Shown: positions 1 to 28,469 of the stretch, piece by piece
Layout: each line of letters opens with the position of its first letter
Position numbering within the stretch: the first letter of the stretch is position 1
DNA from: Candidatus Levyibacteriota bacterium
Lineage (GTDB): Bacteria; Patescibacteriota; Microgenomatia; Levybacterales; UBA12049
Length of the DNA stretch: 64,000 nucleotides
Assembly: GCA_016182235.1 (NCBI GenBank)
Contig: JACOXT010000004.1
Coordinates: forward strand, 28,537 to 92,536
Reading direction: 5' to 3'
Made by a program: the position numbers and the translations under genes
Notes under the pieces: generated by a model
Seen by the model: only the letters and a program-made list of their open reading frames with translations
Database searches by the model: none
Told to the model about the DNA's origin: nothing

Positions 1-1
1 T

Positions 2-664
2 GTTCCTCTCGGAATAGACTCTGACAAATATAGTCCCGAAAATATAGCTGAAAAACGAAAAGAATGGAGAAACAAATTGCTCCCTGAAGATCTTCGATCA
101 AGTCTTAATTTCTATATGGTTGGAAGAATTGCTCCCCAAAAAAATCAATTAAACGCTGTCAAAGCATTCTGTGAGGCAATTAGAAAAACCGGAGATAGAA
201 ATCTAACTATGTCTATTTTTGGTGGCCCATTAGATAATAACACCTACTATAATGAACTAAAAGAATTTATAAAAACTCAACCAGAATATATACAAAGAAG
301 AATTTTATTCCATGGTGTTGTAGACGGAGAAATAGCTCATGCAGTAGGAGATATATTCGTTGGTCCTTCTATTTGGGAAACGTTCTTTCTTGCCGCAGCA
401 GAGGCAATGGCTAGCGGGAAACCAACGATTATTTCAGATAAGGCCATATTAAAAGAAGTTGCCGGAAAAGGCTCAATCTTTGTATCCGACTCTAAAATCG
501 ATAAGATAGCAGATTCCATAGCTATAATGGCAACAAATCCTGATTTTAGAAGCTTCTCCTCGCAGTATAATAAAAAAAGGGCATGGAAAAATTTTACATG
601 GGGAAAATCTGCCCAAACACTCGACGATGTGTGGAACAAGCTGAAGAAAAATAATATTGCATGA
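2..664 (+). CDS. GT4-family (GT-B) glycosyltransferase, C-terminal part; 5' end outside window
   Basis: The frame is open from nt 2 (VPLGIDSDKYSPE...). It has an E-x7-E motif (WETFFLAAAEAMASGKP) typical of retaining GT4 enzymes. The track start at 77 is an internal TTG. Confidence 0.8.
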   Translation, partial: VPLGIDSDKYSPENIAEKRKEWRNKLLPEDLRSSLNFYMVGRIAPQKNQLNAVKAFCEAIRKTGDRNLTMSIFGGPLDNNTYYNELKEFIKTQPEYIQRRILFHGVVDGEIAHAVGDIFVGPSIWETFFLAAAEAMASGKPTIISDKAILKEVAGKGSIFVSDSKIDKIADSIAIMATNPDFRSFSSQYNKKRAWKNFTWGKSAQTLDDVWNKLKKNNIA

Positions 665-1878
665 CATACAATATCATTAGCAAGTGTTATGGTTTAAGCA
701 CTAAAAACCTTATCCAAAACTCGACTAGATTTGGACTTTTAGCTGCCTCTCCAACAAATCTAGAAAGCAAAGCAAAAAACTATACTTCTCTTTTTACACG
801 CGATATTGGAGTTTCTTCCTTGGGAATCCTTTCTTCTCAAAACCAAAAACTAATTGATATTCTTAGGACTTCTTTAATTACGCTTACTGAATCTCAATCT
901 AAATTAGGTCAATTTCCTTTTTACTATATACCAGAAACTAAAACAGTAAGATGGTGGGCTCCGGGAGCAATCGATAGTACGCTATGGTGGTGTATAGCTT
1001 TTTTAAATTACTATAAATCTACTAACGACAAGCAATTCTTCGATAAATACAACTCCAATCTAGAAAAAGCTTTCACTTGGCTAACTTATCAGGATACCAA
1101 TAACGATAGTCTTTTGGAACAAGGGGAAAGTGCAGATTGGGCAGATGAAATGCCTCGCCACGGAACAGTTCTCTACTCTAATACTCTATGGTATTGGCTC
1201 GTAAAATTAAGGGCAGAAGTAGAAAAACGCAATGATTTAATACCTCTACAAACAGAAATTTATGAATCTTTTAACACATTGTTCTGGACACACAAGCAAG
1301 AAGACAATACTCTTAATTATGTTCCAGAAAATAATTTTACATTAAAGAACGTTTATTCAAAGGGGGTCATAGAATATACAAATACTCATGCCGTCTTTCT
1401 TCCTTATTATTTTGGATTTGTTTCATACAAGTCTTTCGAAATGAGATGCGATGTGTATGCAAATATTTTGGCGTGTTTAGTTGGTCTTGCAGATGAAATA
1501 AAAGCCAAGCTTATTACTGATTTTATTATAAGAAGTGGAAGCAATCTTCCTTACCCAGTAAAGGCTCTTTACCCACCTATTTATCCAGGCGAAAACGATT
1601 GGAAAGAGCAAATGAGTAAAGGAAGACAAAATTATCCATGGCAATATCATAACGGAGGCATATGGCCATATATCGGAGGTTTCTGGGTAAAATGGCTTTC
1701 AATTTACGATAAAGAAATTGCAAAAAAAGAACTGCAGAAATTAGCTCAAGCTAATAGCCTTAATCATTGGGAATTCAATGAATTTTTGCATGGTCAACTT
1801 GGAACCCCAATGGGAATCCCTTTACAATCATGGAATATGGCAATGTTTATTGAGGCATACAAATCTACTATTGAATAG
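661..1878 (+). CDS. Six-hairpin glycoside hydrolase, GH100 alkaline/neutral invertase-like or GDE_C-like
   Basis: Motifs LFTRDIGVSSL, PGAIDSTLWWCIAF, GESADWADEMPRHG and YHNGGIWPY resemble (alpha/alpha)6 invertase/debranching families as I recall them. There is a 4-nt overlap with the upstream GT gene. Confidence 0.55.
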   Translation: MTYNIISKCYGLSTKNLIQNSTRFGLLAASPTNLESKAKNYTSLFTRDIGVSSLGILSSQNQKLIDILRTSLITLTESQSKLGQFPFYYIPETKTVRWWAPGAIDSTLWWCIAFLNYYKSTNDKQFFDKYNSNLEKAFTWLTYQDTNNDSLLEQGESADWADEMPRHGTVLYSNTLWYWLVKLRAEVEKRNDLIPLQTEIYESFNTLFWTHKQEDNTLNYVPENNFTLKNVYSKGVIEYTNTHAVFLPYYFGFVSYKSFEMRCDVYANILACLVGLADEIKAKLITDFIIRSGSNLPYPVKALYPPIYPGENDWKEQMSKGRQNYPWQYHNGGIWPYIGGFWVKWLSIYDKEIAKKELQKLAQANSLNHWEFNEFLHGQLGTPMGIPLQSWNMAMFIEAYKSTIE

Positions 1879-1891
1879 ATTCCCAAATGAC

Positions 1892-2875
1892 ATGACTGAA
1901 AGCATTGAGAATCTTGCAAAAATTGACGTAACTCCTAAAGCACTCGTAATTGAGAATGAAGGCCTAAAAAAGGCTGTATGGGTGCTGTCTGATATTGACG
2001 GGACTGTTAATGATGAAGGGGAAATAGAAAGCGAAAGGATATACACAATTGAACCAGCAAAAGAGGCCTTTAGGGAGCTTGAGCAAAGAGGCATAAGCGT
2101 AGGACTTATTACGGCTAGAAGTTTTGCAGAAGCAGAAGAATACCAAACAAAATTATTAATATCAGGAAACATTGTTTGCGAAGACGGAGCAGTTATTGTG
2201 CTACCTAAATCCGCATCCACCAGAAACATGAGCGAACTGATTAAATTTGGAAAAATCGAAACTCATGAGGGAAGAGTTGTGCTTCTGCCAAAAGGAGACT
2301 TAGAAAAATCACCCATCACAACAGAAGATATAAAAAACTTAATTGAAGAAGTAGAATTATCAACAAAAACAAGGATAATTTCCTCATGCACAAGTGCACC
2401 AGACGAATTAAGGGTTGCTGCAAAACATGCGACACTTGAAGCTGCAAAATTAAGCCAAGACAGGCTAGCTTCTGCTTATGCAGTAAATTTAACAGAAGAG
2501 CAAAGAGAATTAGCTAAGGATCTATCTGACTCAAAGGGAATACGTACGTTTACAAATCCTGTTGACAAGATAACAATGTTTTTTCCTAAAGGCGTAAACA
2601 AAGGTCATGCTGTTGATATTTTACTTGAAATAACACCCCTACTTTACCCCTCTCTAAACGTTGAAGGAACATTCTTAATAGCAATTGGAAACAACAACAA
2701 TGACTCACCGTTCTTAAAAAAAGCAGACATAGCAGTAGTTGTAAGGAAGAAAAATGGAGATCTAGCTATCTTACCTGAAAATATTCCTCAAGGAACAATA
2801 ATTCCAAATGCCCCATTTAGCCATGGGGTCAAAGAAGCAGTCTCCCAAATACTAGAAGCACTAAAACCTAATTAA
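1892..2875 (+). CDS. HAD-IIB sugar-phosphate phosphatase (SPP/MPGP/Cof-like)
   Basis: HAD motif I is VLSDIDGTVN, motif II is GLITARS and motif IV is GNNNNDSPF. I moved the start to the in-frame ATG at 1892, because the track start at 1778 would overlap the upstream gene by about 100 nt. Confidence 0.7.
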   Translation: MTESIENLAKIDVTPKALVIENEGLKKAVWVLSDIDGTVNDEGEIESERIYTIEPAKEAFRELEQRGISVGLITARSFAEAEEYQTKLLISGNIVCEDGAVIVLPKSASTRNMSELIKFGKIETHEGRVVLLPKGDLEKSPITTEDIKNLIEEVELSTKTRIISSCTSAPDELRVAAKHATLEAAKLSQDRLASAYAVNLTEEQRELAKDLSDSKGIRTFTNPVDKITMFFPKGVNKGHAVDILLEITPLLYPSLNVEGTFLIAIGNNNNDSPFLKKADIAVVVRKKNGDLAILPENIPQGTIIPNAPFSHGVKEAVSQILEALKPN

Positions 2876-2889
2876 GTTGAGAAAAAACA

Positions 2890-2950
2890 ATGCAGATCAT
2901 TGATTTTAAAAAATTCAATAAATCTTCCTAAAAGAACTCATCGATGTGCT
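2890..2950 (+). repeat. Copy A of the hexokinase 5'-end repeat (decayed, frameshifted)
   Basis: An ATG at 2890 is followed 34 nt later by the exact core CTTCCTAAAAGAACT (2924-2938). The core is shared with copies at 3744-3758 and 4634-4648. Confidence 0.75.
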
Positions 2951-3067
2951 GGTAAAAGGATGACTTCTCTTAATCTAATATAATCTTTTAAGTCCAAATT
3001 TATCTATTTCATCTCTTATGTATGTTGTTCAGATACATACCTTTAGCGCAAGCTAATCGTCAGATAG

Positions 3068-3625
3068 ATGTCAGTAATAAGTCAAGCTATCCATCTGTAT
3101 ATACTTTATTATTCCCATATGCATATGGAAAATAAATCTGACTGGTCATCAAAAGAATCATTAAAGACTTTATCTACGCAAGCAAGAAATGAGGTACAAA
3201 AAATAACAGAAGCTCTTGTCCCGATAGATAGAAAAGTCGACAAGAAATCACCCCTTAATGAAAGAGCTAGGCAAAATTTAGGGTTCTTAAATGAATTATT
3301 AAATAAAGCGCCATTTTTACGAGAATATCTCACGCGTACAGGTAAGCAGATTATATTATCTAAAGCCTTCAATCCTTGGACTATTATTCCTATGCCGGAT
3401 ATAGCAATAGCCGACAGAACTTTAAGTAATAATGTAGGCTTTGATTCTCAAGGAGTTGTGATGTCATTCTTTAGTGATGCTGGATACAGGAAAAGAGTTC
3501 CATTATCAATTGGTTGGCTTGATACCTATTTTGAGACAGGGCATGCTGGAGCGTTGAGTCTTAAAAAGTTTGCAGACACAAGCAGAGAATCTTTGCTTAA
3601 AAAAATAGTTGCAGGAATTAAATAA
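3068..3625 (+). CDS. Hypothetical protein (orphan cassette ORF)
   Basis: A 185-aa ORF with no motif I recognise, bracketed by repeat copies A and B. The true start may be an internal Met (MHMENK...). Confidence 0.4.
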   Translation: MSVISQAIHLYILYYSHMHMENKSDWSSKESLKTLSTQARNEVQKITEALVPIDRKVDKKSPLNERARQNLGFLNELLNKAPFLREYLTRTGKQIILSKAFNPWTIIPMPDIAIADRTLSNNVGFDSQGVVMSFFSDAGYRKRVPLSIGWLDTYFETGHAGALSLKKFADTSRESLLKKIVAGIK

Positions 3626-3709
3626 TCACAACATTTCCTAATTTTCTACAAGACCTAAAATATTCTCTGAGGGAAAGAACTCATTCTTCCCCTAACCCTC
3701 AGTAAACCA

Positions 3710-3834
3710 ATGAAATTAAATATCTTAAAACCATTCAACAAAACTTCCTAAAAGAACTTCAACGGGCAAGCGGGCAAAAAGATAGTGTCAGCATTTCTGT
3801 CAAAAAAATACTTGACAGATTAAATGACGCCTGA
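3710..3834 (+). pseudogene. Copy B: truncated, frameshifted 5' fragment of a hexokinase-like gene
   Basis: About 79% identical to the first ~60 nt of the hexokinase gene at 4599, with a 1-nt deletion. The shifted frame reads NFLKELQRASGQKDSVSISVKKILDRLNDA and then a stop. Confidence 0.7.
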
Positions 3835-3840
3835 TAAGAT
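3812..3840 (+). promoter_or_regulatory. Sigma70-like promoter of the Phd-VapC operon (near-leaderless)
   Basis: TTGACA (3812-3817), a 17-nt spacer, then TAAGAT (3835-3840). The ATG lies 8 nt after the -10 element and no SD is visible. Confidence 0.6.
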
Positions 3841-3848
3841 ATCCTTCT

Positions 3849-4121
3849 ATGATTACCCCAGGCATTATCACAACTAGACAAATACTTAGAAGTTATAAAG
3901 AGATATTTGAAAGAGTCAAGAAAACCAAAGAGCCTCTTATTGTTGTAAGCAAGAAAAAACCACAAGTTGCTATTGTGAATCTGGATGACCTGGAAGAACT
4001 TAAAAAGCTTAAGAATAAAAGATCTACAAAAGCTCTATTAGACTTAGCAGGACTAATCCCAAAGGGAAGCGGCTTACCTTCTGATTTGTCTGAAAAGCAC
4101 AATGAATACACTTGGGATTAG
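3849..4121 (+). CDS. Type II antitoxin, Phd/YefM family
   Basis: 90 aa. The pattern ITTRQILRSYKEIFERVKKTKEPLIVVSKKKPQVAIVNLDDLEEL is typical of Phd/YefM N-domains. It overlaps the downstream PIN gene by 20 nt. Confidence 0.75.
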   Translation: MITPGIITTRQILRSYKEIFERVKKTKEPLIVVSKKKPQVAIVNLDDLEELKKLKNKRSTKALLDLAGLIPKGSGLPSDLSEKHNEYTWD

Positions 4122-4572
4122 TAATCCAATTGTTGTAGGCGATACCGATGGGCTTATCGCCATTATCCACGCGGAGGATAAGAATCATATTAAAGCAAAA
4201 GAGACAGTTTTAAGACTACTGCAAAATGATATCCAAACTTTATTTCCTTTAACCTGTATCGTTGAGACTGTTACGACTTTAAAACGAAAACTCAATAGCA
4301 CAACTCTTGCTGAGCTTGTAGTAGATAGAATTACAAATGGAACAATTACGATCGAAGATGTTGATATCAAACTCCTTTCTAGTGCTTTAGTTATATTTGA
4401 CCTAAAAGGCTCCAAGCAAAACACTTTGTTTGACGCAATTGTTGCTGCAACTGCTAAAAAACATAAATCAGAGTTTATTTTCTCTTTTGACAAATGGTAT
4501 GAGAAATTAGGATTTAGACTGGCTGTTGATTTGCAAAAACAGCTCCAAGGAACAAGTACGAGAAAGAATTAA
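4102..4572 (+). CDS. vapC: PIN-domain toxin, VapC-like
   Basis: The N-terminus has an acidic D-T-D pattern (VVGDTDGLIAI) and there is a C-terminal DAIVAATAKKH motif. The gene is paired with the antitoxin. Confidence 0.7.
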   Translation: MNTLGISNPIVVGDTDGLIAIIHAEDKNHIKAKETVLRLLQNDIQTLFPLTCIVETVTTLKRKLNSTTLAELVVDRITNGTITIEDVDIKLLSSALVIFDLKGSKQNTLFDAIVAATAKKHKSEFIFSFDKWYEKLGFRLAVDLQKQLQGTSTRKN

Positions 4573-4598
4573 GTGAGGAAAATCTTACGAGATGAAAA

Positions 4599-5702
4599 AT
4601 GAAACTTAGTACATTAAAAACCATCCGGCAAAACTTCCTAAAAGAACTCCAAGATGCAAATATAGGCAGGAAGAATAGCCTTGCTTTTATTGTTAATGAA
4701 ATTCCCAAAATTCCTCTTGTAGAAAATGGGAAAAGATTTCAGGTTTTGGTTGTCGGAGGAAGTATTTGCAAAAAAGCAATTCTTGTTAAGAAAGATAATG
4801 AGCTTGAGGTTGTTAAGAATGAAACAGCTAAACAACCTTCTTTTAATAATGAATTAGTTTTTTTGGAATTTATAGAAAAGAATCTTGAAGACAACATTAA
4901 CATTTTGGCTTTAAATTTTGCTTATCCCCTAAAACCCATCTTTATAAATAAAAAGCTTGACGGAATCCTTATAAAAGGTTCTAAGGAAAATTCTTTTGGT
5001 AATCTTGTTGGCAGAAAGATCGGAGAGGAGATAGAAAAATATGTACTTCAAAAAAATGGCAAAAAAATAATTGTCTCTCTGGCAAACGATACTATCTGTC
5101 TTCTGCTTTCGGGATTAACAAAATTTTCATGGGATAATCTTGCCGCAGGAATTGTCGGAACAGGACTTAACTTTGCGATATTTAAAAACAAAAACAAATT
5201 GGTTAATTTGGAGTCTGCAAATTTTGATAAATTCCCAAAAACAAAGGAGACACAAATTATAGATAGAGAATCAAATAATCCCGGAGGTTGGCTTTTTGAA
5301 AAAGAAACAACAGGCGCATATCTTTATAAACATTTTAATATAATCCTAAAAGCAAAAAATCTCCCATTCTCGCCTATCAATTCGACGGAAGATCTAAATG
5401 CTTTATGCTCTAAAAATATTCCCAAGATTTCCAAAATTGCACAAGACCTTTTAAATCAATCCGCTCAATTGGTTGCTTGTCAAATAGCCGGAATAACTGC
5501 ATTCAAAAAACCCCACTTCGCTAAAGCTTCGAGGGGCAAGCAAAATATGGTTTTTGTTATGGAAGGAAGTTTGTTTTGGAAAGGAAATAATTATAAAAAA
5601 ATAGTCAAAGAAACTGTTAGAAAATTAGTACCAGAATATAAAGTTGAATTTGTAGAAATAAAACAAAGCGGTATAATGGGCGGCGCAAAACTAATATGTT
5701 AA
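4599..5702 (+). CDS. Hexokinase-family sugar kinase (actin-fold ATPase)
   Basis: Motifs LALNFAYPL, LANDTICLLLSG, GIVGTGLNFA and EGSLF resemble hexokinase_1/2 domains. It contains a GC-rich insert at 5511-5541. Confidence 0.7.
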   Translation: MKLSTLKTIRQNFLKELQDANIGRKNSLAFIVNEIPKIPLVENGKRFQVLVVGGSICKKAILVKKDNELEVVKNETAKQPSFNNELVFLEFIEKNLEDNINILALNFAYPLKPIFINKKLDGILIKGSKENSFGNLVGRKIGEEIEKYVLQKNGKKIIVSLANDTICLLLSGLTKFSWDNLAAGIVGTGLNFAIFKNKNKLVNLESANFDKFPKTKETQIIDRESNNPGGWLFEKETTGAYLYKHFNIILKAKNLPFSPINSTEDLNALCSKNIPKISKIAQDLLNQSAQLVACQIAGITAFKKPHFAKASRGKQNMVFVMEGSLFWKGNNYKKIVKETVRKLVPEYKVEFVEIKQSGIMGGAKLIC

Positions 5703-6064
5703 TTTATTCAATGCCTCATTAACAAATCCATCTGCTTTTGTATTTTCCTCCCGAGGAATATGTTTATAATAAATAGGCAAAGTTATCTGCGCTTCCCTAT
5801 CTCTAATGGAAAAAAGTAAATTGCGAAGATCAGAATTTTTAACCTTGAAAACCCCTATTATTTGATAACAAACTAGTTTTGAATCAAGACCATTGCAGCA
5901 ATCACCGCTTTATATTCCGCAACATTATTGGTGGCAACTCCAATTGTCTTTCCAAAGCCACCAATCTTCTCTTCTTTACCATTTGTTATATATACTCCAA
6001 TTGCGGCAGGACCAGGATTTCCTCTTGCTCCTCCATCAGTAAATATTTTTATACTATCAATCAT
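5691..6064 (-). pseudogene. rnhA: RNase HI-like gene disrupted by a frameshift and short deletion
   Basis: The N-terminal part (MIDSIKIFTDGGARGNPGPAAIGV...TNNVAEYKAVIAA) stops at a TAG at 5873-5875. The C-terminal part (DSKLVCYQIIGVFKVKN...HIPREENTKADGFVNEAL) continues in another frame down to a TAG at 5691. Confidence 0.6.
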
Positions 6065-6170
6065 ATTATTTATTTTATCATAATTGACTTGTGGTTCGAA
6101 TAAATTTTCTCCTTGACCAAAAGCCCAAAAGTATGGTTCTTTGAAAAATAGATGGAGAGAAATGTGAAAT

Positions 6171-6656
6171 TTAGCGTGGCTTAACAACAAGAACTCTATC
6201 CCTGCCCTCTCCCTGAGATTCTGAAATTACCTCTTTGTCATCTTGAAGCTCCAAGTGAATAACTCTTCTCTCCCAAGACTTCATTTCCGGAATAATAATT
6301 TCTTTATTTTCCGACAGAACTCTTTCCTTGGTTTCTTGAGCCAGACTTTTTAGCCACTCTATTCTATTTTTTTTGTAATCCCCAACCTCCAAAGATACAC
6401 GAATAAATCTTCCTAATTTTTTAGCAATGCATAAAGAAAGTACAAGCTGCAATCCCTCCATAGTATCACCGTGATACCCAATTACAATTCCTGTATCTTT
6501 TGTATCCAAAATTATATCAACGCTTTCGCTTTCTTTATCCAGCACAGAATCGGTGCTGGATTTGTTCTCCAATATGTCAAATTTACCGTCAATATTCAAA
6601 AGCCCGAAGAGTTCGTCTGCAACAGTTTTTATAACTTTTATTTCTTTTTTATCCAT
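6171..6656 (-). CDS. jag: Jag/SpoIIIJ-associated RNA-binding protein (KH + R3H)
   Basis: The C-terminus is R3H-like (ERRVIHLELQDDKEVISESQGEGRDRVLVV). The gene lies immediately downstream of yidC with a 19-nt overlap. Confidence 0.8.
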   Translation of the reverse strand: MDKKEIKVIKTVADELFGLLNIDGKFDILENKSSTDSVLDKESESVDIILDTKDTGIVIGYHGDTMEGLQLVLSLCIAKKLGRFIRVSLEVGDYKKNRIEWLKSLAQETKERVLSENKEIIIPEMKSWERRVIHLELQDDKEVISESQGEGRDRVLVVKPR

Positions 6657-9579: not shown

Positions 9580-10722
9580 ATGAAAGCTTCCTTTCTTTTA
9601 CAAAACCTTTCTAGGAGAATATCTTTTGTTAATCATGCTGTTTCGGCAAAAAGCCAACTCCCAATTCTTCTTAATTTCCTAATCGAAGCAAAAAAAGGAA
9701 GGTTAATAATAAGCGCAACGGATCTGGAAATTGGTATAGTAGCAGAAGTTCCGGCAAAAATAGAAGAAGAGGGCAGCGTAACAATTCCGGCAAAAGCAAT
9801 TACAGAGCTAATATCGGTAGCCCCAATAGAGAAAATAACGCTCCAAACCAAACCCGAGGGGCTTTTTTTGACAGGAGAAAGAGTAAAGACAACTTTTCAG
9901 ACAATGCCCACAGATGAGTTTCCCAAGCTTTATGGAGACAAAGGTTCAGAGCTAATAAGGCTTAAAAGAAATACGATTGACAAAGAATTTTCAAGGGTTG
10001 TTTTTGCGGCAAGTCAAGACGCAGAAAGACCAGCCCTTTCTGGGGTTTTGATAAAAGAGGGAGAGTCAATGAGTAAAGAGGGGTTTTCTCTTGTTGCGAC
10101 CGATGGGTATAGGCTGTCTTTACAAAGGGAAGCTTTGGGAGGTACTAAAAAGAAAAAAACCACAGATGCCTCAATGATTGTGCCGTCCCGAGTTATTAGG
10201 GAGCTTATTTTAATGAATAAGGAGGCTTCGGAAGGGGGCGACATAGGCGTTTACGTACCGCAAGAAACCAACCAGGTGATATTTTCTCAAAACGACGTAA
10301 CCATTGTGGGAAGGCTTATTGAGGCGGAATTTCCTAATTTTGAAAAAATAATCCCACAAGATTATTCAACAAAAACCATCTTTGAGAAAGAAGCCCTGCA
10401 AAGAGCTGTTAAAGCAAGCTACGTGTTCGCACGGCAAACCGCAAACATAGTAAAGCTTTCGATCATGAAAGATAAGATAGTTGTTTCCGCCAATGCTCCT
10501 TCTTTCGGAAGTAGCGTTATGGAAGTGGACGCAAAAACAACCGGCGAGGAGAATGAGATCGCTTTTAGCGTGCGTTACCTTTTGGATTTTTTTTCAAATA
10601 TCGACGGGGAGGAAGTTTCATTTGAAATGACCGGCCCGTTAAATCCCGGAGTTTTTAAAATAGTAGGGGATGATACATACCTGCATCTAATAATGCCAAT
10701 TCGGATACAACAAGAGGCCTAG
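9580..10722 (+). CDS. dnaN: DNA polymerase III beta sliding clamp
   Basis: 380 aa, directly downstream of dnaA. It has three-domain clamp-like motifs (LVATDGYRLS, MPIRI C-terminus). Confidence 0.9.
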   Translation: MKASFLLQNLSRRISFVNHAVSAKSQLPILLNFLIEAKKGRLIISATDLEIGIVAEVPAKIEEEGSVTIPAKAITELISVAPIEKITLQTKPEGLFLTGERVKTTFQTMPTDEFPKLYGDKGSELIRLKRNTIDKEFSRVVFAASQDAERPALSGVLIKEGESMSKEGFSLVATDGYRLSLQREALGGTKKKKTTDASMIVPSRVIRELILMNKEASEGGDIGVYVPQETNQVIFSQNDVTIVGRLIEAEFPNFEKIIPQDYSTKTIFEKEALQRAVKASYVFARQTANIVKLSIMKDKIVVSANAPSFGSSVMEVDAKTTGEENEIAFSVRYLLDFFSNIDGEEVSFEMTGPLNPGVFKIVGDDTYLHLIMPIRIQQEA

Positions 10723-12257
10723 GGGGTTGGTTGTGATGGGATAAGGGTTGGGGTGGGGGTTGGGGCGCTGCAACTTCTTATAAAAAGACCAGACTTAAAA
10801 TAGTACTGAGGTATCGCGCAATCATATACTCGCTTTTTGCTAGCATCAGCTGGCGAATATTCTATACAAAAGCCATGTTCAATGATACACACATTTGGAT
10901 CATCAAAGCAGCTATTGTAACTTGGGTTTTTGTCGCAAGCTATAATGCCATTCGTACACTTATCAACACAACTTGCCGTTATGGTAATCCCCTCCTCCCT
11001 GCTGTGATACTCGGCAAGATTCCTGGCGCATGCATTGCCATCGGCCACCATTATGTTGTTGCCGTTGGGGTCAGAGCAGTCAACCCCAAACAACTGATGA
11101 CCCTGACCGCCATCTCTTCCGGCAAGAAAGATTATGAGAAAAACAATTATGATGATTAAAATTATAACCCCAATTACAATCCATCCCACTGGATTTGACA
11201 CCAAAGCCCCAACACCTGTGGCTACAGCTCTTCCTGCGGCCATTCCGGCCTGAACAGCAAGTCTTCCCCCGATTCTCGCTATTCCCCTTCCTGCGCCGCC
11301 ACCCCCTCTTCCAAAAGTTCTTCCCAGAAATCTTCCCGCTCTGGTTGATTGGGAGGGGATGCGCGTAAGATTCGCGGGTCTTGATTCTTCCTGCTGGATT
11401 TTCCGTAAGATCCTAGAAATGTTTTGTGAGCTGGGCTTATCTTCCCTTTCCTCAGGCTTTATTTGTTCGCCCGAGTTTTTTTCATGCGAAAGAAGATTAT
11501 GTGAGTTTGTCTTTTCCGGGTGATCTTTTGCAAATTTTGACCACTCATGTTTCTTAATGGCATTACCAACCTCTTCCATAGAATAGTTTCCGCCACCTTT
11601 TTTTAGAAAGTCACTTCTCGCAACAACATGTTCTTCGATAGTTTTGTTTAACCTTATTATCGCGGGGTCGTTCTCGGGATTTTTATAAATTTTTTTCTTT
11701 TCCCTGTCGTATCTTTCCAGCCTTTTTGCGTACTTTGGGTTATCTCGGTATGTCTTTTGGGCATCTTTTGATAGCGAGGGGAGATCCTCGTTTTCTAAAG
11801 AACCATAAAGATAGTCTAGCCCCTCCTGTGAAGAAAAATCTTTTCCGGGATTTTTTTCAAGCCAATCTTTTTTAAGTTTTTCCTCAATTTTTTTATAGTC
11901 TTTATCGTCTTGGATAATCTTTGGGCGCTCAAGAAACATTGCGGCAAGAACAGGAACACCTGCTAGAGATTGCGGAACGTTAGATAGATCAACCGAGCCA
12001 TTTTTTTGCATTTGGATATCCTCATGCTGGCTCCTAAGATAATAATAGGTATCAGCTATTTCTTTCCCGATCCAGATGTCGGGATCTATGTTTTTCTGCC
12101 TTGCCCACCTATAGAATTCTTCTGGAGTTCCTATGCCAAGAGCTTCGGGGTATTTTCTTGAAAAGTTCTGCCATTCAAATGTTTTAGCGTCGGCTTCCTT
12201 GGGGCGTTCTCTTATAAACCTCTCGATTTGGGCAAAGTTTCTGATTTGTGGATCCAT
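10719..12257 (-). CDS. Hypothetical single-pass membrane protein with a Gly/Arg-rich juxtamembrane segment and a Cys-rich C-terminal ectodomain
   Basis: 512 aa. The G/R-rich segment is RTFGRGGGGAGRGIARIGG, followed by a TM helix (WIVIGVIILIIIIVFLIIFLAG), a C-rich tail and a PT linker. It is the last gene of the T4SS-like operon. Confidence 0.5.
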   Translation of the reverse strand: MDPQIRNFAQIERFIRERPKEADAKTFEWQNFSRKYPEALGIGTPEEFYRWARQKNIDPDIWIGKEIADTYYYLRSQHEDIQMQKNGSVDLSNVPQSLAGVPVLAAMFLERPKIIQDDKDYKKIEEKLKKDWLEKNPGKDFSSQEGLDYLYGSLENEDLPSLSKDAQKTYRDNPKYAKRLERYDREKKKIYKNPENDPAIIRLNKTIEEHVVARSDFLKKGGGNYSMEEVGNAIKKHEWSKFAKDHPEKTNSHNLLSHEKNSGEQIKPEEREDKPSSQNISRILRKIQQEESRPANLTRIPSQSTRAGRFLGRTFGRGGGGAGRGIARIGGRLAVQAGMAAGRAVATGVGALVSNPVGWIVIGVIILIIIIVFLIIFLAGRDGGQGHQLFGVDCSDPNGNNIMVADGNACARNLAEYHSREEGITITASCVDKCTNGIIACDKNPSYNSCFDDPNVCIIEHGFCIEYSPADASKKRVYDCAIPQYYFKSGLFIRSCSAPTPTPTLIPSQPTP

Positions 12258-12260
12258 AGG

Positions 12261-14258
12261 CTACTCTTTGGGTTTTTGCTGGTCAAATTGCGTGGCGTTG
12301 GTTTGCAGACTAGGCGGAAAATCATTGATAATTGTTGGTTCGGGCTGGGGCTTACTTGATGGAAAAAGTTTTTCTCTTAGTTCCTCAATGCTCTGCCGAG
12401 AAGATGTGTTGGTAGGGGGAGTTTGGGGTGGGTTATTCTGGTTGGATGGAGTCTCAGGGGGCGGTGGCTGGGGTAATGCCTCTTCTCTTTCTTTTATATC
12501 TTGCGGATTTGTTGTTGCGAGAGTTTTTTCAAAAGGTGCCGCAACTATTTTTATTGCCACATGGGACTGTCCGGCGAAAAATAATCCTTCGCCAACATCA
12601 ACCGCAAGAAGAAGCTCTTTTTCTCCTTTTGAGAGGTAAAATATTTGGGTTACCATGTCTATCTCGGTCGGACTCTGCTTTAGAAGAACTTGAATAGAAG
12701 AATTAGACAATACGGCTTTGCCATAGTCTGTCGAAAGAAAATCCTGAACATCCTGGGTGGCTGTTGTTAACGCCAGATAATACTTGCGTGCCCTTTTGGC
12801 AATCCCATACACGAAAGAGGCAGAATCTGGGTATTTCATCAAATGCCATGCCTCGTCTAAAATAAGAAGTCTTTTCTTAAGGCTGGACCTAACCCTTGTC
12901 CAAACAAAATCCAAGATAATATGCATCGCAATTGACCTAAGATTGTCCTCAAGTCCCCGGATTGAGAAAACAGTAAATGGATTGGTAATATTAAAATTTG
13001 ATTGCTGATTAAATATTCCGGAAAGTGATCCTTTTATGAATTTTTCCAAACGAAGCGCGAGTTCTTGGGCACGGCTTTCTTCCATTCCAAGTAAAACCTT
13101 GTATAAGTCCTCAAGAAGGGGCGGAGTTCTTTTTTGGGTTGACGGATCTATCGTTATACCTTTTTGTCTGTATGTCTCAACCAATGCCCTGTCTAAAATA
13201 GCATCATAGGCGGGGTCAAGGTCTCCCATTACAATTTTAAGAAGCCCATGAAGAGACAGAATCTTAAGCCCCAGCTCGTTTTCTTCTTCTTTGTAAAGCC
13301 CAGCCAGATCAAAGGGGTTAATTTTTATAGGGGATGTTGGGGTAAATACCACATATTCCCCCCCAAGGGTTTTTGTTATAGCCTCATACTCTCCCTCGGG
13401 GTCAATGATTATAATTTCTGTTCCAAACATAAATTGACGCATTGCCTCTAGTTTTATAAGAAAAGACTTTCCGGATCCGGATTTTCCAAAAACAACTTCG
13501 TTGGCGTTTTCAAGCGTAAACCTGTCAAACACAACAAGAGATCCGTTTTGCTGGTTAAGCCCATACATGATTCCCTTGTCTTGGGAGAGCGTTGCTGAAG
13601 TAAAAGGGAAGGTTGACGCAAGAGACGTAGTATCCATATTTCGGGCTATAAACAGATTGTCTACTCCAAGAGGTATGGTTGACTTGAACCCGGCCTCCAT
13701 TTGTAGGGTTGCCCTTTTTGGCAGTATAAGAAGAGAAGCAAGAATGGATTCAAGTCTTTTTGAGGCCTGTTCAATCTCGGGAAGATCTTCGCCATAAAGA
13801 GTTACATACAGACTCATCTGGAAAAATCGCTCAACTCCTTTGGCTAGTTCTTCGGCAAGATTTAACGCGTCATCTAGAGCAGCCTGAACTTTCGCGTCAG
13901 GCACAAGCCCCTGATCAACCTGAGAAGCGATAGTTGCTTCCATTTCCGCGGTTTTACGCCTTATATCAGATAAGACATCCGTAGATGACGTTGGGTATAC
14001 AAACATAGATATGTTAAGAGAATGATTAAAGTCAATAAGGGGAGACAGCCAGTTTGGGGAGACATAGCGAGGATAACCTACGATAAAAAAGGTTTTATAA
14101 AAGTTTTGACCTACTCTTATAAAATTAAAATCCACTTCAACTGAGGATGGCGCTATAACGTCAACAATTGAAACCATTCCTTTCTCAAGGTAAACTAGGG
14201 GTGAATTGGAAGCGCTCTTGTTTTGAGCGGATGTTTTTTTATTATTTTTGAAAAACAT
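12261..14258 (-). CDS. VirB4/TraC/PrgJ-like type IV secretion ATPase
   Basis: Walker A is FGKSGSGKSFLIK and Walker B is RLLILDEAWHLM. Size and N-domain pattern fit VirB4. The C-terminal tail is Pro/Gln-rich. Confidence 0.85.
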   Translation of the reverse strand: MFFKNNKKTSAQNKSASNSPLVYLEKGMVSIVDVIAPSSVEVDFNFIRVGQNFYKTFFIVGYPRYVSPNWLSPLIDFNHSLNISMFVYPTSSTDVLSDIRRKTAEMEATIASQVDQGLVPDAKVQAALDDALNLAEELAKGVERFFQMSLYVTLYGEDLPEIEQASKRLESILASLLILPKRATLQMEAGFKSTIPLGVDNLFIARNMDTTSLASTFPFTSATLSQDKGIMYGLNQQNGSLVVFDRFTLENANEVVFGKSGSGKSFLIKLEAMRQFMFGTEIIIIDPEGEYEAITKTLGGEYVVFTPTSPIKINPFDLAGLYKEEENELGLKILSLHGLLKIVMGDLDPAYDAILDRALVETYRQKGITIDPSTQKRTPPLLEDLYKVLLGMEESRAQELALRLEKFIKGSLSGIFNQQSNFNITNPFTVFSIRGLEDNLRSIAMHIILDFVWTRVRSSLKKRLLILDEAWHLMKYPDSASFVYGIAKRARKYYLALTTATQDVQDFLSTDYGKAVLSNSSIQVLLKQSPTEIDMVTQIFYLSKGEKELLLAVDVGEGLFFAGQSHVAIKIVAAPFEKTLATTNPQDIKEREEALPQPPPPETPSNQNNPPQTPPTNTSSRQSIEELREKLFPSSKPQPEPTIINDFPPSLQTNATQFDQQKPKE

Positions 14259-14260
14259 AT

Positions 14261-14893
14261 TTAGGTAGTTTTTTTAACAATAGGAAATTCGAAATTGCCA
14301 GCGGCTTGATTTATGTGTTCGTATTCCCCGTTATATATTTCGTAAAACAGTCTTACCAAGTCTTCTTTTCCAAGCGTTTTTGCTTGTAAGCCAATTCGCC
14401 CCAATTGTGAATGTATAGACTCTCCTTTAATAGAAAGCCTTGCTTTTGCAGTTTTGAAGAAACTTCCCTGATCTTGTCCTAAGCCTGCCTCCAGGGAAGA
14501 GTGTGAACAAACTATATAAAATTTCTTATCTAAAACAGTATTTATGGTAACAAGTTCCTGTATAAAATCGCGATATTGTTTTATATGGCTTTTTAAAAGA
14601 GGATTCTGGCTTTCCGTAATTTCGTCGTCTAAAAGCTTAAGATATGACGATATATCGACCTTTTTACTTAGGACAACTATTTGGATAGGAAAAGACAGGG
14701 AGTTTAGAAGAGACGAATAAGAGAGCACTTTTGAGTCCTGCTCCTCTTTGGACAAAAGAGCAAAATTAGTCGCTTCAACTTCAATAATCAAACAGGCATT
14801 TCCAGAAGACAGTAAAACGACATTGTCTATAATATCCTGAATCTCAATAAATTTTTGGGTCGTTGTTCGAATTTTTTGGGCAGTTTTTTTCAT
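14261..14893 (-). CDS. Hypothetical protein resembling a VirB4 N-terminal domain, without ATPase motifs
   Basis: 210 aa. FIEIQDIIDNVVLLSSGNACLIIEVEATNFALLSKEEQ parallels the start of the adjacent VirB4-like protein. There is no Walker motif. Confidence 0.4.
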   Translation of the reverse strand: MKKTAQKIRTTTQKFIEIQDIIDNVVLLSSGNACLIIEVEATNFALLSKEEQDSKVLSYSSLLNSLSFPIQIVVLSKKVDISSYLKLLDDEITESQNPLLKSHIKQYRDFIQELVTINTVLDKKFYIVCSHSSLEAGLGQDQGSFFKTAKARLSIKGESIHSQLGRIGLQAKTLGKEDLVRLFYEIYNGEYEHINQAAGNFEFPIVKKTT

Positions 14894-14913
14894 AGTTTCG
14901 ACAAGCTCACTAT

Positions 14914-16113
14914 TTATTTGTCTCCAAAAAGGGATTTCCTAAGTTCCTCTCTTGTGTCTATGGATACGACTTCAAGAGGCATAATTATGTCACCTTTTAC
15001 CGTAATTTCTACGGCATCGAACTTGTGAATTTTCCTTGGGTCTTCAAATTCAATAGTGTAAATGCCGTTTATCAATGGGGTCGCGGAAATAAACCTGCCT
15101 AGCTCATTGGTCTTGAATGCCCTGACAGGATTTCCTTCCTTGTCCTTGACCTCAACCAAAATATTTGCCAGCATATTATCCCTTGAATCTTTTACAATAC
15201 CCGTTACGAGATTTGGGGCGCTTGGAGTTATTGGCAGACCTATATTTTTACCCATGTTTTGAGGTATGCGTATTACATTTTTAGTTTCTGTTTTTGGCAC
15301 AGCAGTAGAGGGAGTAAAGACATTCTTTGGTTTTGTCTCCATTTTTTGTCTTAGGGATAACAGCTCTTGTGCGAGTTGTTCTTTTTGAGAGTTTACTTCC
15401 TGGAGTTTGCTTTCCAGCTCTGAAACTTTTTTATGAGAGAGGTCTTCAGATTGTTTTTGCTCAGTTTGTTTTTGGACAACGGGAATTTGGATCTTTATGG
15501 GTTCGGGAGGTTTTTCTAAAATTGTAGGTATTTGGGGTTTATTTACTAAAGACTTTGGATTGTTAGCCTTCATGGGGGCGGGGGTAGGCGGATTGATAAA
15601 CCTGGGCATGGGTTGATTTTTGGGCGAAGGGGCAATGGCTTTTTGGCTAGCGGAGGTTAAATTGGAAAGAGACGCCAGAAAATTTGCTTCCTTGTCGTCT
15701 AATTTGTTTCCGGGATGTCTAGGAAGAGACCGAAGATACATTTTTAATCTGTCGTTATCGGAGGGTGGCAATTTTTTTATTTCTTTTTTTTGAGCTGGAT
15801 GAATGCTTGGGAAATAAAGTTGTCCTCCTGCTTTTTGATAAACAAATTGGGTTGGACTAATAAGAGCTTTAATAAAATGAGATATCATAGCATCAAGCGG
15901 ACGGCCCTCAACAGGTAAATATGCAAGGCTTATTCCCACGACCGCGAAAAAAACCGAGATTGGAAATTTAATGATAAAAAAAATTGGCATTTGCAAAATA
16001 AGCCATGCAAAAACAATACCTGTTATCAGATAGCTAAACTGCTTTATTGTCATATTGCCGATTAGCTTGAATTGAAATCCCGTTACGTCTTGAGGAATAG
16101 GATGATCTTCCAT
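14914..16113 (-). CDS. PrgI/VirB3-like membrane protein fused to a coiled coil and a carboxypeptidase-regulatory-like beta domain
   Basis: The N-terminus (IPQDVTGFQFKLIGNMTIKQFSYLITG plus 2 TM) looks like the PrgI family. The C-terminus (TGIVKDSRDNMLANILVEVKDKEGNPV) looks like a CarboxypepD_reg fold. Confidence 0.6.
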   Translation of the reverse strand: MEDHPIPQDVTGFQFKLIGNMTIKQFSYLITGIVFAWLILQMPIFFIIKFPISVFFAVVGISLAYLPVEGRPLDAMISHFIKALISPTQFVYQKAGGQLYFPSIHPAQKKEIKKLPPSDNDRLKMYLRSLPRHPGNKLDDKEANFLASLSNLTSASQKAIAPSPKNQPMPRFINPPTPAPMKANNPKSLVNKPQIPTILEKPPEPIKIQIPVVQKQTEQKQSEDLSHKKVSELESKLQEVNSQKEQLAQELLSLRQKMETKPKNVFTPSTAVPKTETKNVIRIPQNMGKNIGLPITPSAPNLVTGIVKDSRDNMLANILVEVKDKEGNPVRAFKTNELGRFISATPLINGIYTIEFEDPRKIHKFDAVEITVKGDIIMPLEVVSIDTREELRKSLFGDK

Positions 16114-16214
16114 ACAAACAGCATATATCGTGAAAAATTAGATTGCAACCCCTACAAAATATATCAAATCTAATAAATTATAAGTGTTTCTGTGAAAAAT
16201 GATAGAATGAAGCA

Positions 16215-16877
16215 ATGATCTATTTACTTTTACTATTTTTGGAAATCGCTTTGTTGTTTTTTCTTTCGCGCGCAGTGAGCCAGGCTCTTTCCCGATTCTT
16301 ATCCATACAAATTTTATCTTTTATTTTTTTGCCCGGGGTTATAATCCATGAGCTGTCCCATATGTTAGTCGCGTCAGTTTTGTTTGTCAGGGTAGGGGAT
16401 ATGGAGTTTTCTCCAAAAATTACAGAAGGAAAGCTCAAGTTGGGGAGTGTGGCAATCGCAAAAACCGACCCAGTAAGAAGGGCAATAATAGGCTTTGCGC
16501 CTGTTTTCACAGGCGTCTTAATAATTCTTGGAATTATATACTTTTTTTCCAATAGCTTCTTGCTCTTTCAGGAAAACCAAATATACATGACGGTATTTAT
16601 GGTTTTGGCAATCATTTATATTTTGTTTGCAATTTCAAATACTATGTTTTCAAGCAGGAGTGATATGGAAGGGACATTAGAGCTTATTATAGTTTTTTTG
16701 GTAATTTTTGCAGTTCTTTATTTTCTTGGCTTTCGTGTTCCTGTTTCTTTTTTAGAATATTTAAATACACCAGGTATCGTAAAGCTTTTCAAAGAAGCAT
16801 GTCTATTTCTTTCCGCGCCGATCGCAATAGACTTTGTTATATTAAGAGGAATTAAGCTTTTTAGAAAAGAATTATGA
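16215..16877 (+). CDS. Polytopic membrane protein with an HExxH motif (putative metalloprotease)
   Basis: 220 aa with about 5 TM helices. GVIIHELSHMLVA sits at a membrane boundary. The gene is embedded, on the opposite strand, in the pilin cluster. Confidence 0.5.
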   Translation: MIYLLLLFLEIALLFFLSRAVSQALSRFLSIQILSFIFLPGVIIHELSHMLVASVLFVRVGDMEFSPKITEGKLKLGSVAIAKTDPVRRAIIGFAPVFTGVLIILGIIYFFSNSFLLFQENQIYMTVFMVLAIIYILFAISNTMFSSRSDMEGTLELIIVFLVIFAVLYFLGFRVPVSFLEYLNTPGIVKLFKEACLFLSAPIAIDFVILRGIKLFRKEL

Positions 16878-16889
16878 ATCCAGCGCCTC

Positions 16890-17216
16890 TCAGCAGCCGA
16901 ATCCAAATGTTTTAATGCAGGGGACTTGAGTGACTTCGAATATAAGGTTTCGTATGAAAAAAGAAAATAGAACAAGCAAAAGCCCCACAATTGCAAATAT
17001 AAGCGTGTTTCTTGCCGATTCAAGAACTTTTGGATCTCCCGCAGAATGCATATACTTATAACCGCTAAAAATTATAAATACCAATGAAGTAATTCCCACA
17101 AACATTAAAAGAGCATTTATGATATTTAAGAAAACAGCAGGAATACAAGAAAGGGTGGCAACGCCATTCTCAACACAGTTAATTTTTAAAAATTCATCCC
17201 ATTGAAACTGAGGCAT
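16890..17216 (-). CDS. T4SS pilin-like protein (VirB2/TrbC-like), paralog 1
   Basis: Two-TM hairpin with the shared motif FSGYKYMHSAGDPKVLESARNTLIFAIVGLLLV. Confidence 0.7.
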   Translation of the reverse strand: MPQFQWDEFLKINCVENGVATLSCIPAVFLNIINALLMFVGITSLVFIIFSGYKYMHSAGDPKVLESARNTLIFAIVGLLLVLFSFFIRNLIFEVTQVPCIKTFGFGC

Positions 17217-17285
17217 AATTTAAGACTAGCAGAGAGAAAGCAAAAAAACAATAGTCTACAAAAAGCGTTTGATAAGCAAGAGAAG

Positions 17286-17750
17286 CTAGGAAGTAGGAGC
17301 AACTATTTTTGGAATCTTTAGATCAGTAAGGCTCAAATCGAAGGCCGCAAGAACAAGAGAAACAATAAAAATTGCCAGGAAAACAACTATAAGTCCGACT
17401 ACAGCGGCGATAATATGGTTTCTTGCCGCCTCAACTTGATCTTTTTCTCCTCTTGAAGTTATCCACTTTACCCCTCCATATAAGAGATACAAAAGTGCAA
17501 TAACAACAGCAATTACTATAATGGCAATTACTATATTGCCTAGTGTTTTAGAAGTTTGGTTTCCACCAATTGCACATAAGACATCAAGAAAGGGATTAAC
17601 TTCTTTACCGGGTCCGACTCCAACACACGGATCCACTTCTGTTTGCGCAAATGCGGGAAAAGCTAAAAGAGGATAAAGGAATGAAGCTTGAATAAAGAGA
17701 AATAATTTCTTCATTAAATTTATAGTAGAGGGTGTTTTCGCATTTGTCAA
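17286..17750 (-). CDS. T4SS pilin-like protein, paralog 2 (likely start at MKKLFLF, nt 17714)
   Basis: It has a signal peptide plus the motif YGGVKWITSRGEKDQVEAARNHIIAAVVGLIVV. Confidence 0.7.
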   Translation of the reverse strand: MTNAKTPSTINLMKKLFLFIQASFLYPLLAFPAFAQTEVDPCVGVGPGKEVNPFLDVLCAIGGNQTSKTLGNIVIAIIVIAVVIALLYLLYGGVKWITSRGEKDQVEAARNHIIAAVVGLIVVFLAIFIVSLVLAAFDLSLTDLKIPKIVAPTS

Positions 17751-17764
17751 GGGGTATCTTAGCT

Positions 17765-18097
17765 TTAATTTGACCCCAAAAGCTTTATTCCAAAAAATCC
17801 TCCTAAAAGACTTAATATAAATATTGTGAAGAAGATAACAAGTAACCCAATAATCGCGTATCTTAATCTTTCTCTGCCGTGAGCGAATCTTTCTTTATCT
17901 CCTCCTGATGTCATCATGTTGAATCCTGCAAGGAAGATGCTATAAACAGAAAAAATAAGCGCAGCAAGAATCAAAAATTCGATGACAACAGCAATGATAT
18001 TTTGGCCTCTTGGGAAAAGCCCGCCAGTCGGCACACCAGTTGGCAAGCCGATATCTATATTCGGAAATCCCGGTATTGAAAACGCAATCTTTTCCAT
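17765..18097 (-). CDS. T4SS pilin-like protein, paralog 3
   Basis: Carries the motif LAGFNMMTSGGDKERFAHGRERLRYAIIGLLVI. Confidence 0.65.
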   Translation of the reverse strand: MEKIAFSIPGFPNIDIGLPTGVPTGGLFPRGQNIIAVVIEFLILAALIFSVYSIFLAGFNMMTSGGDKERFAHGRERLRYAIIGLLVIFFTIFILSLLGGFFGIKLLGSN

Positions 18098-18098
18098 A

Positions 18099-18195
18099 TG
18101 ATTAATGATTGATGATTTCTGATTAATGAAAAAAATAATTATATTTTCTCAATTCTATATTCTTAAATCTTTAATCATTAATCTTAAATCAATTC
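18099..18195. repeat. Inverted pair of heptamer arrays forming a hairpin between two pilin genes
   Basis: The left arm is TGATTAA/TGATTGA/TGATTTC/TGATTAA (18099-18126). The right arm is TCTTAAA/TCTTTAA/TCATTAA/TCTTAAA/TCAATTC (18161-18195). The arms are mutually complementary. Confidence 0.8.
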
Positions 18196-18199
18196 AGTC

Positions 18200-21648: not shown

Positions 21649-22011
21649 CTAAAAGGTTTTCCAGTTGTTTCGAAGATTAGTAAGTTTTCCTCCTAATAAC
21701 AGGTATCTATTGATAAGGTCGTTGCAAAAATTCTTTTCCCAAAAAACTAAATCTCTTGCCAAGCTGATATGGACTTCCATTTCATTACAAGATCCAATTG
21801 CTGAATCTAAATGCAGCTTGAATTGTTTATCAAATCTTCTTTTTGCCCAACCTTCTGCAATATTTGCAGGAACAGATTTAGAGGCTTTTCTTAACTGCAA
21901 GCCAAGGTCATTCCTTTCAAATAGGGGAAGTTTATTAACATTTCTATTAACTGTAAGAGCTAATTCGTAGGCTTCTTTATACACTTCCAAATCTCTAAAG
22001 CTCTTGATCAT
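21649..22011 (-). CDS. Four-helix-bundle protein (23S rRNA intervening-sequence protein family)
   Basis: 120 aa. FRDLEVYKEAYELALTV and ANIAEGWAKR motifs are typical of this family. Confidence 0.8.
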   Translation of the reverse strand: MIKSFRDLEVYKEAYELALTVNRNVNKLPLFERNDLGLQLRKASKSVPANIAEGWAKRRFDKQFKLHLDSAIGSCNEMEVHISLARDLVFWEKNFCNDLINRYLLLGGKLTNLRNNWKTF

Positions 22012-27525: not shown

Positions 27526-27526
27526 G

Positions 27527-28052: not shown

Positions 28053-28054
28053 AG

Positions 28055-28129: not shown

Positions 28130-28136
28130 TCCAATG

Positions 28137-28222: not shown

Positions 28223-28241
28223 CATTTTCGACTTTCTTTGG

Positions 28242-28314: not shown

Positions 28315-28315
28315 A

Positions 28316-28432: not shown

Positions 28433-28469
28433 TTATCCTATTGCAGATTATGAAGCAAATTTGACTAGA

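Follow-up and report, generated by a model that had tools for sequence, protein, structure and literature searches.

The 5′ end of a hexokinase (HK) gene occurs three times, in direct orientation, in a 64,000-nt stretch of contig JACOXT010000004.1 (hereafter the window), which belongs to the metagenome-assembled genome of an uncultured Candidatus Levybacteria organism (Patescibacteria; candidate phyla radiation, CPR). With a probability of roughly one half, we consider these copies to be one working HK 5′ end (copy C) and two dead stubs (copies A and B), left as scars by at least two successive recombination-driven insertions. At similar odds, we place the insertions at the HK-proximal edge of a hypervariable island and regard dedicated element machinery as unnecessary. 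The copies bracket a single small gene (cassette 1) and a toxin–antitoxin (TA) module (cassette 2). The original prediction, made from the sequence alone, had read them as the product of serial site-specific insertion or, alternatively, of the decay of tandem HK paralogs.

The locus lies 3.5 kb from dnaA, and the product of the intact gene is 100% identical to the NCBI protein with locus tag HYT07_03485. All three copies share an exact 15-mer, CTTCCTAAAAGAACT, found in the 64 kb only at 2924–2938, 3744–3758, and 4634–4648; allowing two mismatches added no further site in the window, where ~0.43 chance matches were expected. The copies are spaced by 820 and 890 nt, and this core lies 34, 34, and 35 nt from the ATGs at 2890, 3710, and 4599, respectively, copies A and B each lacking one nt in the A-run that precedes it. 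A sequence check confirmed all of these originally reported values. Copies A and B read as 13-codon open reading frames (ORFs), MQIIDFKKFNKSS and MKLNILKPFNKTS, stopping at a TAA within the core. The similarity flanking the TA module scored 58, compared with 20.7 ± 2.5 for shuffled sequences. The three-copy arrangement is not an assembly artefact, because an independent Logan assembly from the same sample (L008, run SRR12113420) was 100% identical to window positions 1–5539, which span the three copies; this was the one other assembly of the organism, and its arrangement is identical.

Copy C scored 50.8 bits against an HK N-terminal profile (first 60 HK residues, 119 homologues), and stub B (3712–3786) matched profile positions 2–27 with an E-value of 1.5e-7. 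Stub B begins 6 nt ahead of its ATG and ends at HK nt 77 (codon 26–27). Its part to the right of the core is HK-like (p ~0.001), and its end was placed at 3786 because homology to the Phd-VapC modules of other genomes begins at 3786–3787. The first ~60 nt of the HK gene thus recur at 2890 and 3710 as first described, but copy B is longer than that description allowed. The ATG of stub A lies 14 nt past the stop codon of the preceding HAD-family phosphatase gene, and its homology to HK is certain to the core end at 2938 and probable to 2961 (p ~0.02–0.03), which gives a length of ~50–72 nt. With 14 unique changes, stub A is the most decayed of the three copies. Next to each stub lies unrelated DNA that has a gene or promoter of its own.

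The HAD 3′ end (2835–2875) and the adjoining spacer form the left part of repeat unit A, and this region (2835–2886) aligns with 4537–4582, with the stop codons in register. The alignment of this junction segment scored 26, whereas 64 real upstream regions from the window scored 14.3 ± 3.4, none of them as high. The junction segment starts exactly at the end of PIN family homology. To judge from this alignment, the 62 nt before copy C (4537–4598) probably represent a second, diverged version of the HAD 3′ end with its spacer, within which repeat unit C probably starts. Because the segment before copy C resembles the HAD 3′ end, the duplicated unit appears to be the local HAD–HK junction and not a portable arm of an attachment site (attP).

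Over 83 aligned columns, identity was 66% between B and C, 57% between A and C, and 55% between A and B. Copy C was 70% identical to the HK gene of L001, which represents a different genus-level lineage with an HK amino-acid identity of 66%; this comparison of stubs with lineages (55–66% vs. 70%) rests on 83 nt. The longest exact runs were 20 nt for B–C, 16 nt for A–C, 15 nt for A–B, and 26 nt for B–L001, with P ~0.001–0.002 under random placement. The functional pair C–L001 was likewise clustered (20-nt exact run, P 0.006), and mismatches avoided the core in every pair compared. Stub B carried 5 unique changes and functional copy C carried 6. Because of this lineage-level divergence, the core-sparing mismatches, and the few unique changes in B, we suggest that the stubs diverged within working genes of the core-sharing clade and are not neutral copies of C; for stub B, the sequence suggests divergence while functional and a recent truncation. 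A mosaic test for a crossover at the core, in which B and C would be alike in the left arm and A and B in the right, returned 55–75% for all pairs, on short segments.

In copy C, the core spans codons 12–17 and encodes NFLKEL, the best conserved part of the HK N-terminus. The intact HK gene of the nearest relative, L001, has the identical 15-mer, and five other orthologues show 2–4 mostly synonymous differences. Exact conservation of the core therefore needs no attachment (att) function, since it encodes NFLKEL and is identical in the intact gene of L001. The original prediction had considered that the 15-mer might be a dispersed repeat unrelated to HK, but it was found at HK 5′ ends only: with up to two mismatches allowed, it did not occur outside HK starts in 170 kb of related DNA, and a 20-mer searched for in viral contigs was absent.

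We obtained 698 HK homologues; five HK relatives came from genome and metagenome scans, and closer contexts were found via a protein index. The nearest relatives, L001, L006, and L007 (66–69% identical), each carry HK directly behind a different sugar gene, with a gap of 0–11 nt. Upstream, a divergently oriented regulator gene (Trans_reg_C family, 430 aa; 264–1580 of L008) is orthologous in five genomes, with 58–76% identity. The slot between this regulator and HK is empty in L022 and carries a different set of genes, selfish or related to sugar metabolism, in each of the other genomes examined, with nine items in this genome (Table 1); in L020, small TA-type cassettes follow one another up to a point 2 nt ahead of the HK ATG. 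The HK start is therefore the fixed right border of a hypervariable insertion slot. The insertions of the other genomes fell in the intergenic slot, not in the HK coding sequence. Among the loci seen, HAD–HK adjacency was confined to this lineage. The eight related loci (L001, L003, L006, L007, L019, L020/21, and L022) each contained a single HK gene, with neither tandem HK genes nor extra HK 5′ copies. An unoccupied state, for which the original prediction had called, exists in these relatives as a single HK right after the preceding gene or the divergent regulator gene.

Two further observations concern the slot. At 7428–7447 of L020, 17 of 20 nt resemble HK codons 23–29, a similarity that was not significant (p = 0.06); the piece immediately precedes the promoter of a Phd-ParE module abutting HK, in the same relative position as stub B. 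A gene for a 23S rRNA intervening-sequence protein occurs in the window (21649–22011, minus strand), and a gene of the same family occupies 5866–6234 in the slot of L019.

What follows on the sequence of events, the donor DNA and its form, and the enzymes involved is inferred from this anatomy. At each event, the incoming DNA would have joined the chromosome inside the first 50–77 nt of the resident HK. A small, self-expressed cassette would have arrived with either an HK 5′ segment or an entire HK allele of a related Levybacterium; after each event, an intact HK start would lie downstream, and the earlier start would be left behind as a stub. Recombination guided by short homology would be the likeliest route, either through a single Campbell-type crossover with a circular molecule of cassette plus HK fragment or through a linear fragment joined by homology at one end and illegitimately at the other. 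Exchange would be favoured in the NFLKEL-coding core because it is the only long identical stretch between the diverged alleles. For type VI secretion system (T6SS) and Rhs arrays, displaced gene-end stubs have been proposed to result from homology-facilitated illegitimate recombination (Kirchberger et al., 2017; PMC5361080).

Several points weigh against such recombination scars. Two independent events must have fallen within the same 30-nt stretch of one gene, and the stubs may end near the same HK position (nt ~72 and 77), which is more regular than usual for illegitimate joins. Both dead stubs keep the exact 15-mer, at which five of the six other orthologues differ. Identities of 15–26 nt are short for RecA-dependent exchange. 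The similarity of the junction segment to the HAD 3′ end was only moderately significant (p ~0.02), and the shared derived sites of the three copies numbered 3, 3, and 3, so that three-taxon parsimony was star-like. Neither an intermediate nor a donor arrangement was found, and recombinases were looked for only in the 64-kb window and in 3 kb of L008.

Next, we focused on the DNA between the copies. By its sequence, cassette 2 has the features of a type II Phd/YefM-VapC system: antitoxin and PIN toxin genes that overlap by 20 nt, a predicted promoter of its own (−35 at 3812–3817 and −10 at 3835–3840; 10 of 12 positions plus TG), and a palindromic operator, TGTCA..TGTC..TTGACA, of which TGTCA/TTGACA is conserved in homologous modules. 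The module is thus complete, as first proposed. DNA homology to modules of other CPR genomes covers 3786–4532, and PIN family proteins end at about residue 145 with '...LAxDL(Y/F)', which corresponds here to ~4536. The toxin has 380 homologues with ~55–70% identity, the few with a named source being from CPR Microgenomates (for example, Gottesman-, Davies-, and Levybacteria). Homologous Phd-VapC modules at seven loci had unrelated surroundings and lacked both flanking repeats and the 15-mer; the settings included a position beside an rve fragment (L009), one between DHFR and rpsB (L010), and one in which the PIN homologue adjoins a tyrosine integrase on a plasmid-like contig (L015). The idea that this TA family generally inserts with target duplication was rejected, as six other TA loci and the pgk-side module described below gave nothing above the null. 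The HK ATG lies 26 nt behind the VapC stop, and no terminator was predicted within 2700–4800; given this gap and the lack of a predicted terminator, HK is probably transcribed from the TA promoter together with read-through from the sugar operon.

Other TA modules of this genome also tend to directly precede glycolytic or sugar genes. A second Phd-PIN module (47817–48508) has its own TTGACA/TACACT promoter and a palindromic operator, and a single base separates its stop codon, which ends at 48508, from the pgk ATG at 48510 (pgk, 48510–49616); no pgk stub or duplication was found upstream of pgk at this module. A third Phd-PIN pair is located just beyond the window (1676–2350 of L008).

Cassette 1 contains one small gene and, just before stub B, a hairpin with a 7-bp stem (CTGAGGG...CCCTCAG). 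The gene had been described as an orphan ORF of 185 aa; a product of 166–168 aa with a start at 3119 or 3125 is more likely, and the gene is not a strict orphan. An indexed protein search gave no match, and a search of 1.8 billion representatives gave two remote homologues with 48% and 35% identity. The gene for the former (P0242) has its own TTGACA/TATAGT promoter and lies behind an unrelated gene on contig L018, where no HK-like sequence, flanking repeat, or 15-mer was found around it. The small gene had no match in Pfam, PHROG, or NCBIfam, and its single-sequence AlphaFold model was too poor to use (pLDDT 37). Additional cassettes bounded by the same repeat, which the original prediction had led us to look for, were absent from the seven TA-homologue loci and from the one locus with a homologue of the small ORF.

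Table 1. Coordinates of features in the window and content of the slot between the regulator gene and HK in this and related genomes.
Feature	Position	Strand	Description
GT4 glycosyltransferase	77–664	+	first gene of the GT4 – GH100-like – HAD sugar operon
GH100/GDE-like hydrolase	661–1878	+	
HAD-IIB phosphatase (MPGP/SPP-like)	1892–2875	+	last gene of the sugar operon; Pfam Hydrolase_3; NCBIfam HAD-SF-IIB above cutoff; gene call in L008
Stub A, pseudogenised HK 5′ end	2890–2961	+	core 2924–2938; frameshift (1-nt deletion), in-frame TAA
Cassette 1	2962–3703	+	one small gene (CDS 3119/3125–3625) and hairpin just before stub B
Stub B, HK 5′ end	3704–3786	+	core 3744–3758; 1-nt A-run deletion and 3-nt deletion
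Cassette 2, self-contained type II Phd/YefM-VapC module	3787–4536	+	Pfam PF02604, PF01850
Phd antitoxin	3849–4121	+	PF02604
VapC/PIN toxin	from 4102, stop to 4572	+	PF01850
Junction segment	4537–4598	+	VapC C-terminal tail of 10–12 codons and stop (to 4572), 26-nt spacer before HK
Intact HK, copy C, 367 aa	4599–5702	+	Pfam Hexokinase_2 PF03727 and Hexokinase_1 PF00349
TraG/VirB4-like P-loop ATPase	12261–14258	−	
PrgI-like protein	14914–16113	−	
Type IV secretion system pilin-domain proteins, two	17286–17750, 18200–19450	−	
Slot, this genome			Phd-PIN, GT4, GH100-like, HAD, stub A, small gene, stub B, Phd-VapC
Slot, L022			empty; 85-nt divergent intergenic region
Slot, L001			glycosyltransferase and GH1
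Slot, L006			452-aa gene and glycoside hydrolase
Slot, L019			23S_IVP and AAA ATPase

Among the other explanations, duplication in situ survives best, though we regard it as unlikely. The HAD–HK junction (~80–140 nt) would have been duplicated once or twice by slippage, unequal exchange, or staggered-break repair, with foreign cassettes caught between the copies; all three copies would derive from one resident sequence, and the stubs would have decayed since. Units A and C do seem to share the HAD 3′ end, the spacer, and the HK start, the HAD–HK adjacency is specific to this lineage among the loci seen, and A and B share the same 1-nt loss in the A-run, a deletion near codon 21–22, and GAT at codon 26. 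However, derived sites shared by A and B were not in excess over those of the other pairs (3 vs. 3 and 3). Outside the core, moreover, the copies are as distant from each other (55–66% identity) as orthologues of different genera; neutral decay of this depth should not spare an exact run of 15–20 nt (P ~0.001–0.002), nor should stub B then show as few unique changes as the functional copy. A streamlined genome is also expected to lose direct repeats and non-functional DNA quickly, which counts against decay in place.

Serial site-specific integration, the process favoured by the original prediction, appears more doubtful. Here the HK 5′ end would contain an att site with the 15-nt core as its crossover region, and a tyrosine or serine recombinase encoded elsewhere would act in trans to integrate small integrase-less elements, or remnants of such elements, that carry attP and a surrogate HK start; tandem accretion would give the order attL – cassette 1 – hybrid att – cassette 2 – attR. 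This would fit three direct repeats with an exact core and diverged arms, the retention of that core in dead copies, the restoration of an intact HK start by each insertion, and stubs that possibly end at almost the same HK position. The size (~0.75 kb) and content of the cassettes (a TA module with promoter, a lone small ORF) resemble those of integrons or cis-mobilizable elements (CIMEs), and one PIN homologue adjoins a tyrosine integrase on the plasmid-like contig L015. Against these points, we found no integrase, resolvase, or transposase domain among the ~50 ORFs of the 64-kb window in a Pfam search, in agreement with the original prediction; the additional 3 kb of upstream sequence in L008 likewise showed no integrase. 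No hairpin or attC-like structure was shared by the copies: folds of 100 nt of DNA around each copy, on both strands, were no better than those of shuffled sequences (z-scores of −0.35, +1.34, −0.21, −1.70, +1.05, and −0.21). The repeats matched no Rfam family, and no inverted repeats bounded the cassettes. Homologous cassettes elsewhere have neither the repeat nor the core, and the eight related HK loci are free of stubs, including islands that would require an attL stub. Coding conservation explains the identity of the core, which is the same in the intact gene of L001, and the segment before copy C resembles local HAD DNA and not an element arm. The footprints of insertion that the original prediction recognized thus stand, whereas its site-specific cassettes, lacking an attC structure and any repeat or stub elsewhere, are not supported. 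That the NFLKEL 15-mer is a genuine attachment site, at which an unseen recombinase acting in trans serially captures integrase-less cassettes with a surrogate gene start, seems slightly less probable again.

The locus does not fit target-site duplication by a transposon or insertion sequence, which leaves short (2–15 bp) identical copies: no transposase domain was found in the window, the cassettes have no terminal inverted repeats, and the repeats are 50–80+ nt long and diverged. Decay of three tandem HK paralogs, the first two reduced to their starts, can be dismissed despite the same orientation and similar spacing (820 and 890 nt) of the direct copies, because no remnant of an HK body lies between 2876 and 4598 (a full HK profile on the six-frame translation of 2800–4720 found the three 5′ ends only, and its best score between the stubs was 0.4 bits, with hits out of order), and the intervening DNA instead comprises a TA module that has homologues in many genomes and a small gene that belongs to a family of its own, and none of the eight related loci has tandem HK genes.

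Recombination scars at the border of a hotspot, the reading we prefer, were then compared with known systems. The closest likeness is to the displaced orphan arrays of Rhs, contact-dependent inhibition (CDI), and T6SS loci (PMC5361080). In both cases, a conserved part of a gene serves as the recombination anchor, successive modules leave truncated pieces of the older gene beside cargo that is kept, the locus is variable, and an integrase is unnecessary; the HK stubs, compared over 83 nt, may also be about as diverged as alleles from separate lineages. As in such arrays, truncated HK pieces here stand beside retained cargo at a locus that varies between relatives. Unlike those arrays, in which 3′ tips lie downstream, the HK locus has 5′ stubs upstream of the intact gene; a housekeeping sugar kinase takes the place of a polymorphic toxin with a variable C-terminal tip and immunity gene, and the cargo (TA module, small ORF) is functionally unlinked to the stubs. 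The arrangement is also seen in only one genome.

Tandem genomic islands, integrative and mobilizable elements (IMEs), and CIMEs accumulate at gene ends, as exemplified by the ssrA islands of Dehalococcoides (PMC3146451) and reviewed for the accretion of CIMEs and integrative and conjugative elements (PMC5704250). There, too, the end of the target gene is duplicated as direct repeats on either side of serially inserted units, the target gene stays intact, and integrase-less units bounded by att sites (CIMEs) are known. However, a cognate integrase lies in at least one unit or nearby in those systems and none was seen here; their repeats are near-identical, whereas those of HK share 55–66% outside the 15-nt core; and their att sites recur in many genomes, whereas the present repeat was found nowhere else and its units are ~0.8 kb. 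Integron arrays and clusters of attC sites lacking integron integrases (CALINs) resemble the locus in their small (0.8 kb), co-oriented, serial cassettes with a single gene or a TA pair. Chromosomal integrons typically include TA cassettes that carry promoters of their own. In the HK locus, however, the boundaries are copies of coding sequence and not bottom-strand attC hairpins, and the window contains neither IntI, which CALINs do not require, nor attI.

Homology-facilitated illegitimate recombination and Campbell-type integration are said to have been described in transformable bacteria by de Vries and Wackernagel and by Prudhomme and colleagues, both in 2002. These routes predict a homologous segment on both sides of the insert, one truncated and one continuous with the gene, as seen here; they are defined in the laboratory, whereas the homology at HK is very short and diverged and the process is read from its product. 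We read the locus as a recombination scar at a hotspot border, a feature of a familiar type in new surroundings, and find no support for a dedicated site-specific cassette system.

Several other features of the window and its relatives were recorded. On the 3′ side of HK, rnhA, jag, yidC, rnpA, and rpmH lie on the minus strand, followed by dnaA on the plus strand. The RNase HI gene just downstream of HK (5703–6190, minus strand) appears disrupted, with 105 N-terminal codons followed by a stop and the C-terminal part in another frame, and is ~20 residues short compared with the 147-aa orthologue in L001; a pseudogene or a sequencing error is possible, the L008 assembly stopping before that point. 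A palindrome with a 10-bp stem, ATCCAGCAC(C/A)...GGTGCTGGAT, occurs within the jag coding region (6537–6562) and at 225–253 of L008, just downstream of the regulator gene, with an 86% match over 43 nt. A type IV secretion-like cluster lies beside dnaN (10719–19450, minus strand; components in Table 1). Tandem genes for class A penicillin-binding proteins (41238–45735, minus strand) share ~64% DNA identity over 1.4 kb. Six tRNA genes (four Ser, two Arg) and a tmRNA gene near smpB occupy 27526–29366 and 31691–32049, and these genes explain the short repeats found near 28 kb when the window was compared with itself. Seven CPR hexokinases (P0005, P0019, P0021, P0028, P0031, P0072, and P0098) contain in-frame insertions of 20–50 residues with recurring motifs (...HPEFISGS...VKQVQHDM... 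and ...IRHSGE...RFWTS...) that look like translated short repeat elements. Positions 1–19 of Logan contig L014 are the Nextera adapter AGATGTGTATAAGAGACAG, and its first bases are not genomic.

The locus provides a clean, assembly-verified example of gene gain in a streamlined, transposon-poor CPR genome, and can be used as an annotated recombination scar and as a marker of the hypervariable sugar-metabolism island in Levybacteria. If the attachment-site interpretation were true, it would represent a new integron-like capture platform in CPR that uses coding sequence in place of attI and attC. The placement of the TA module means that a housekeeping glycolytic HK probably depends on a TA promoter, and the same tight abutment is found at pgk. 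Insertions accumulate at one permissive border near the replication origin region, and the duplicated gene start records their history.

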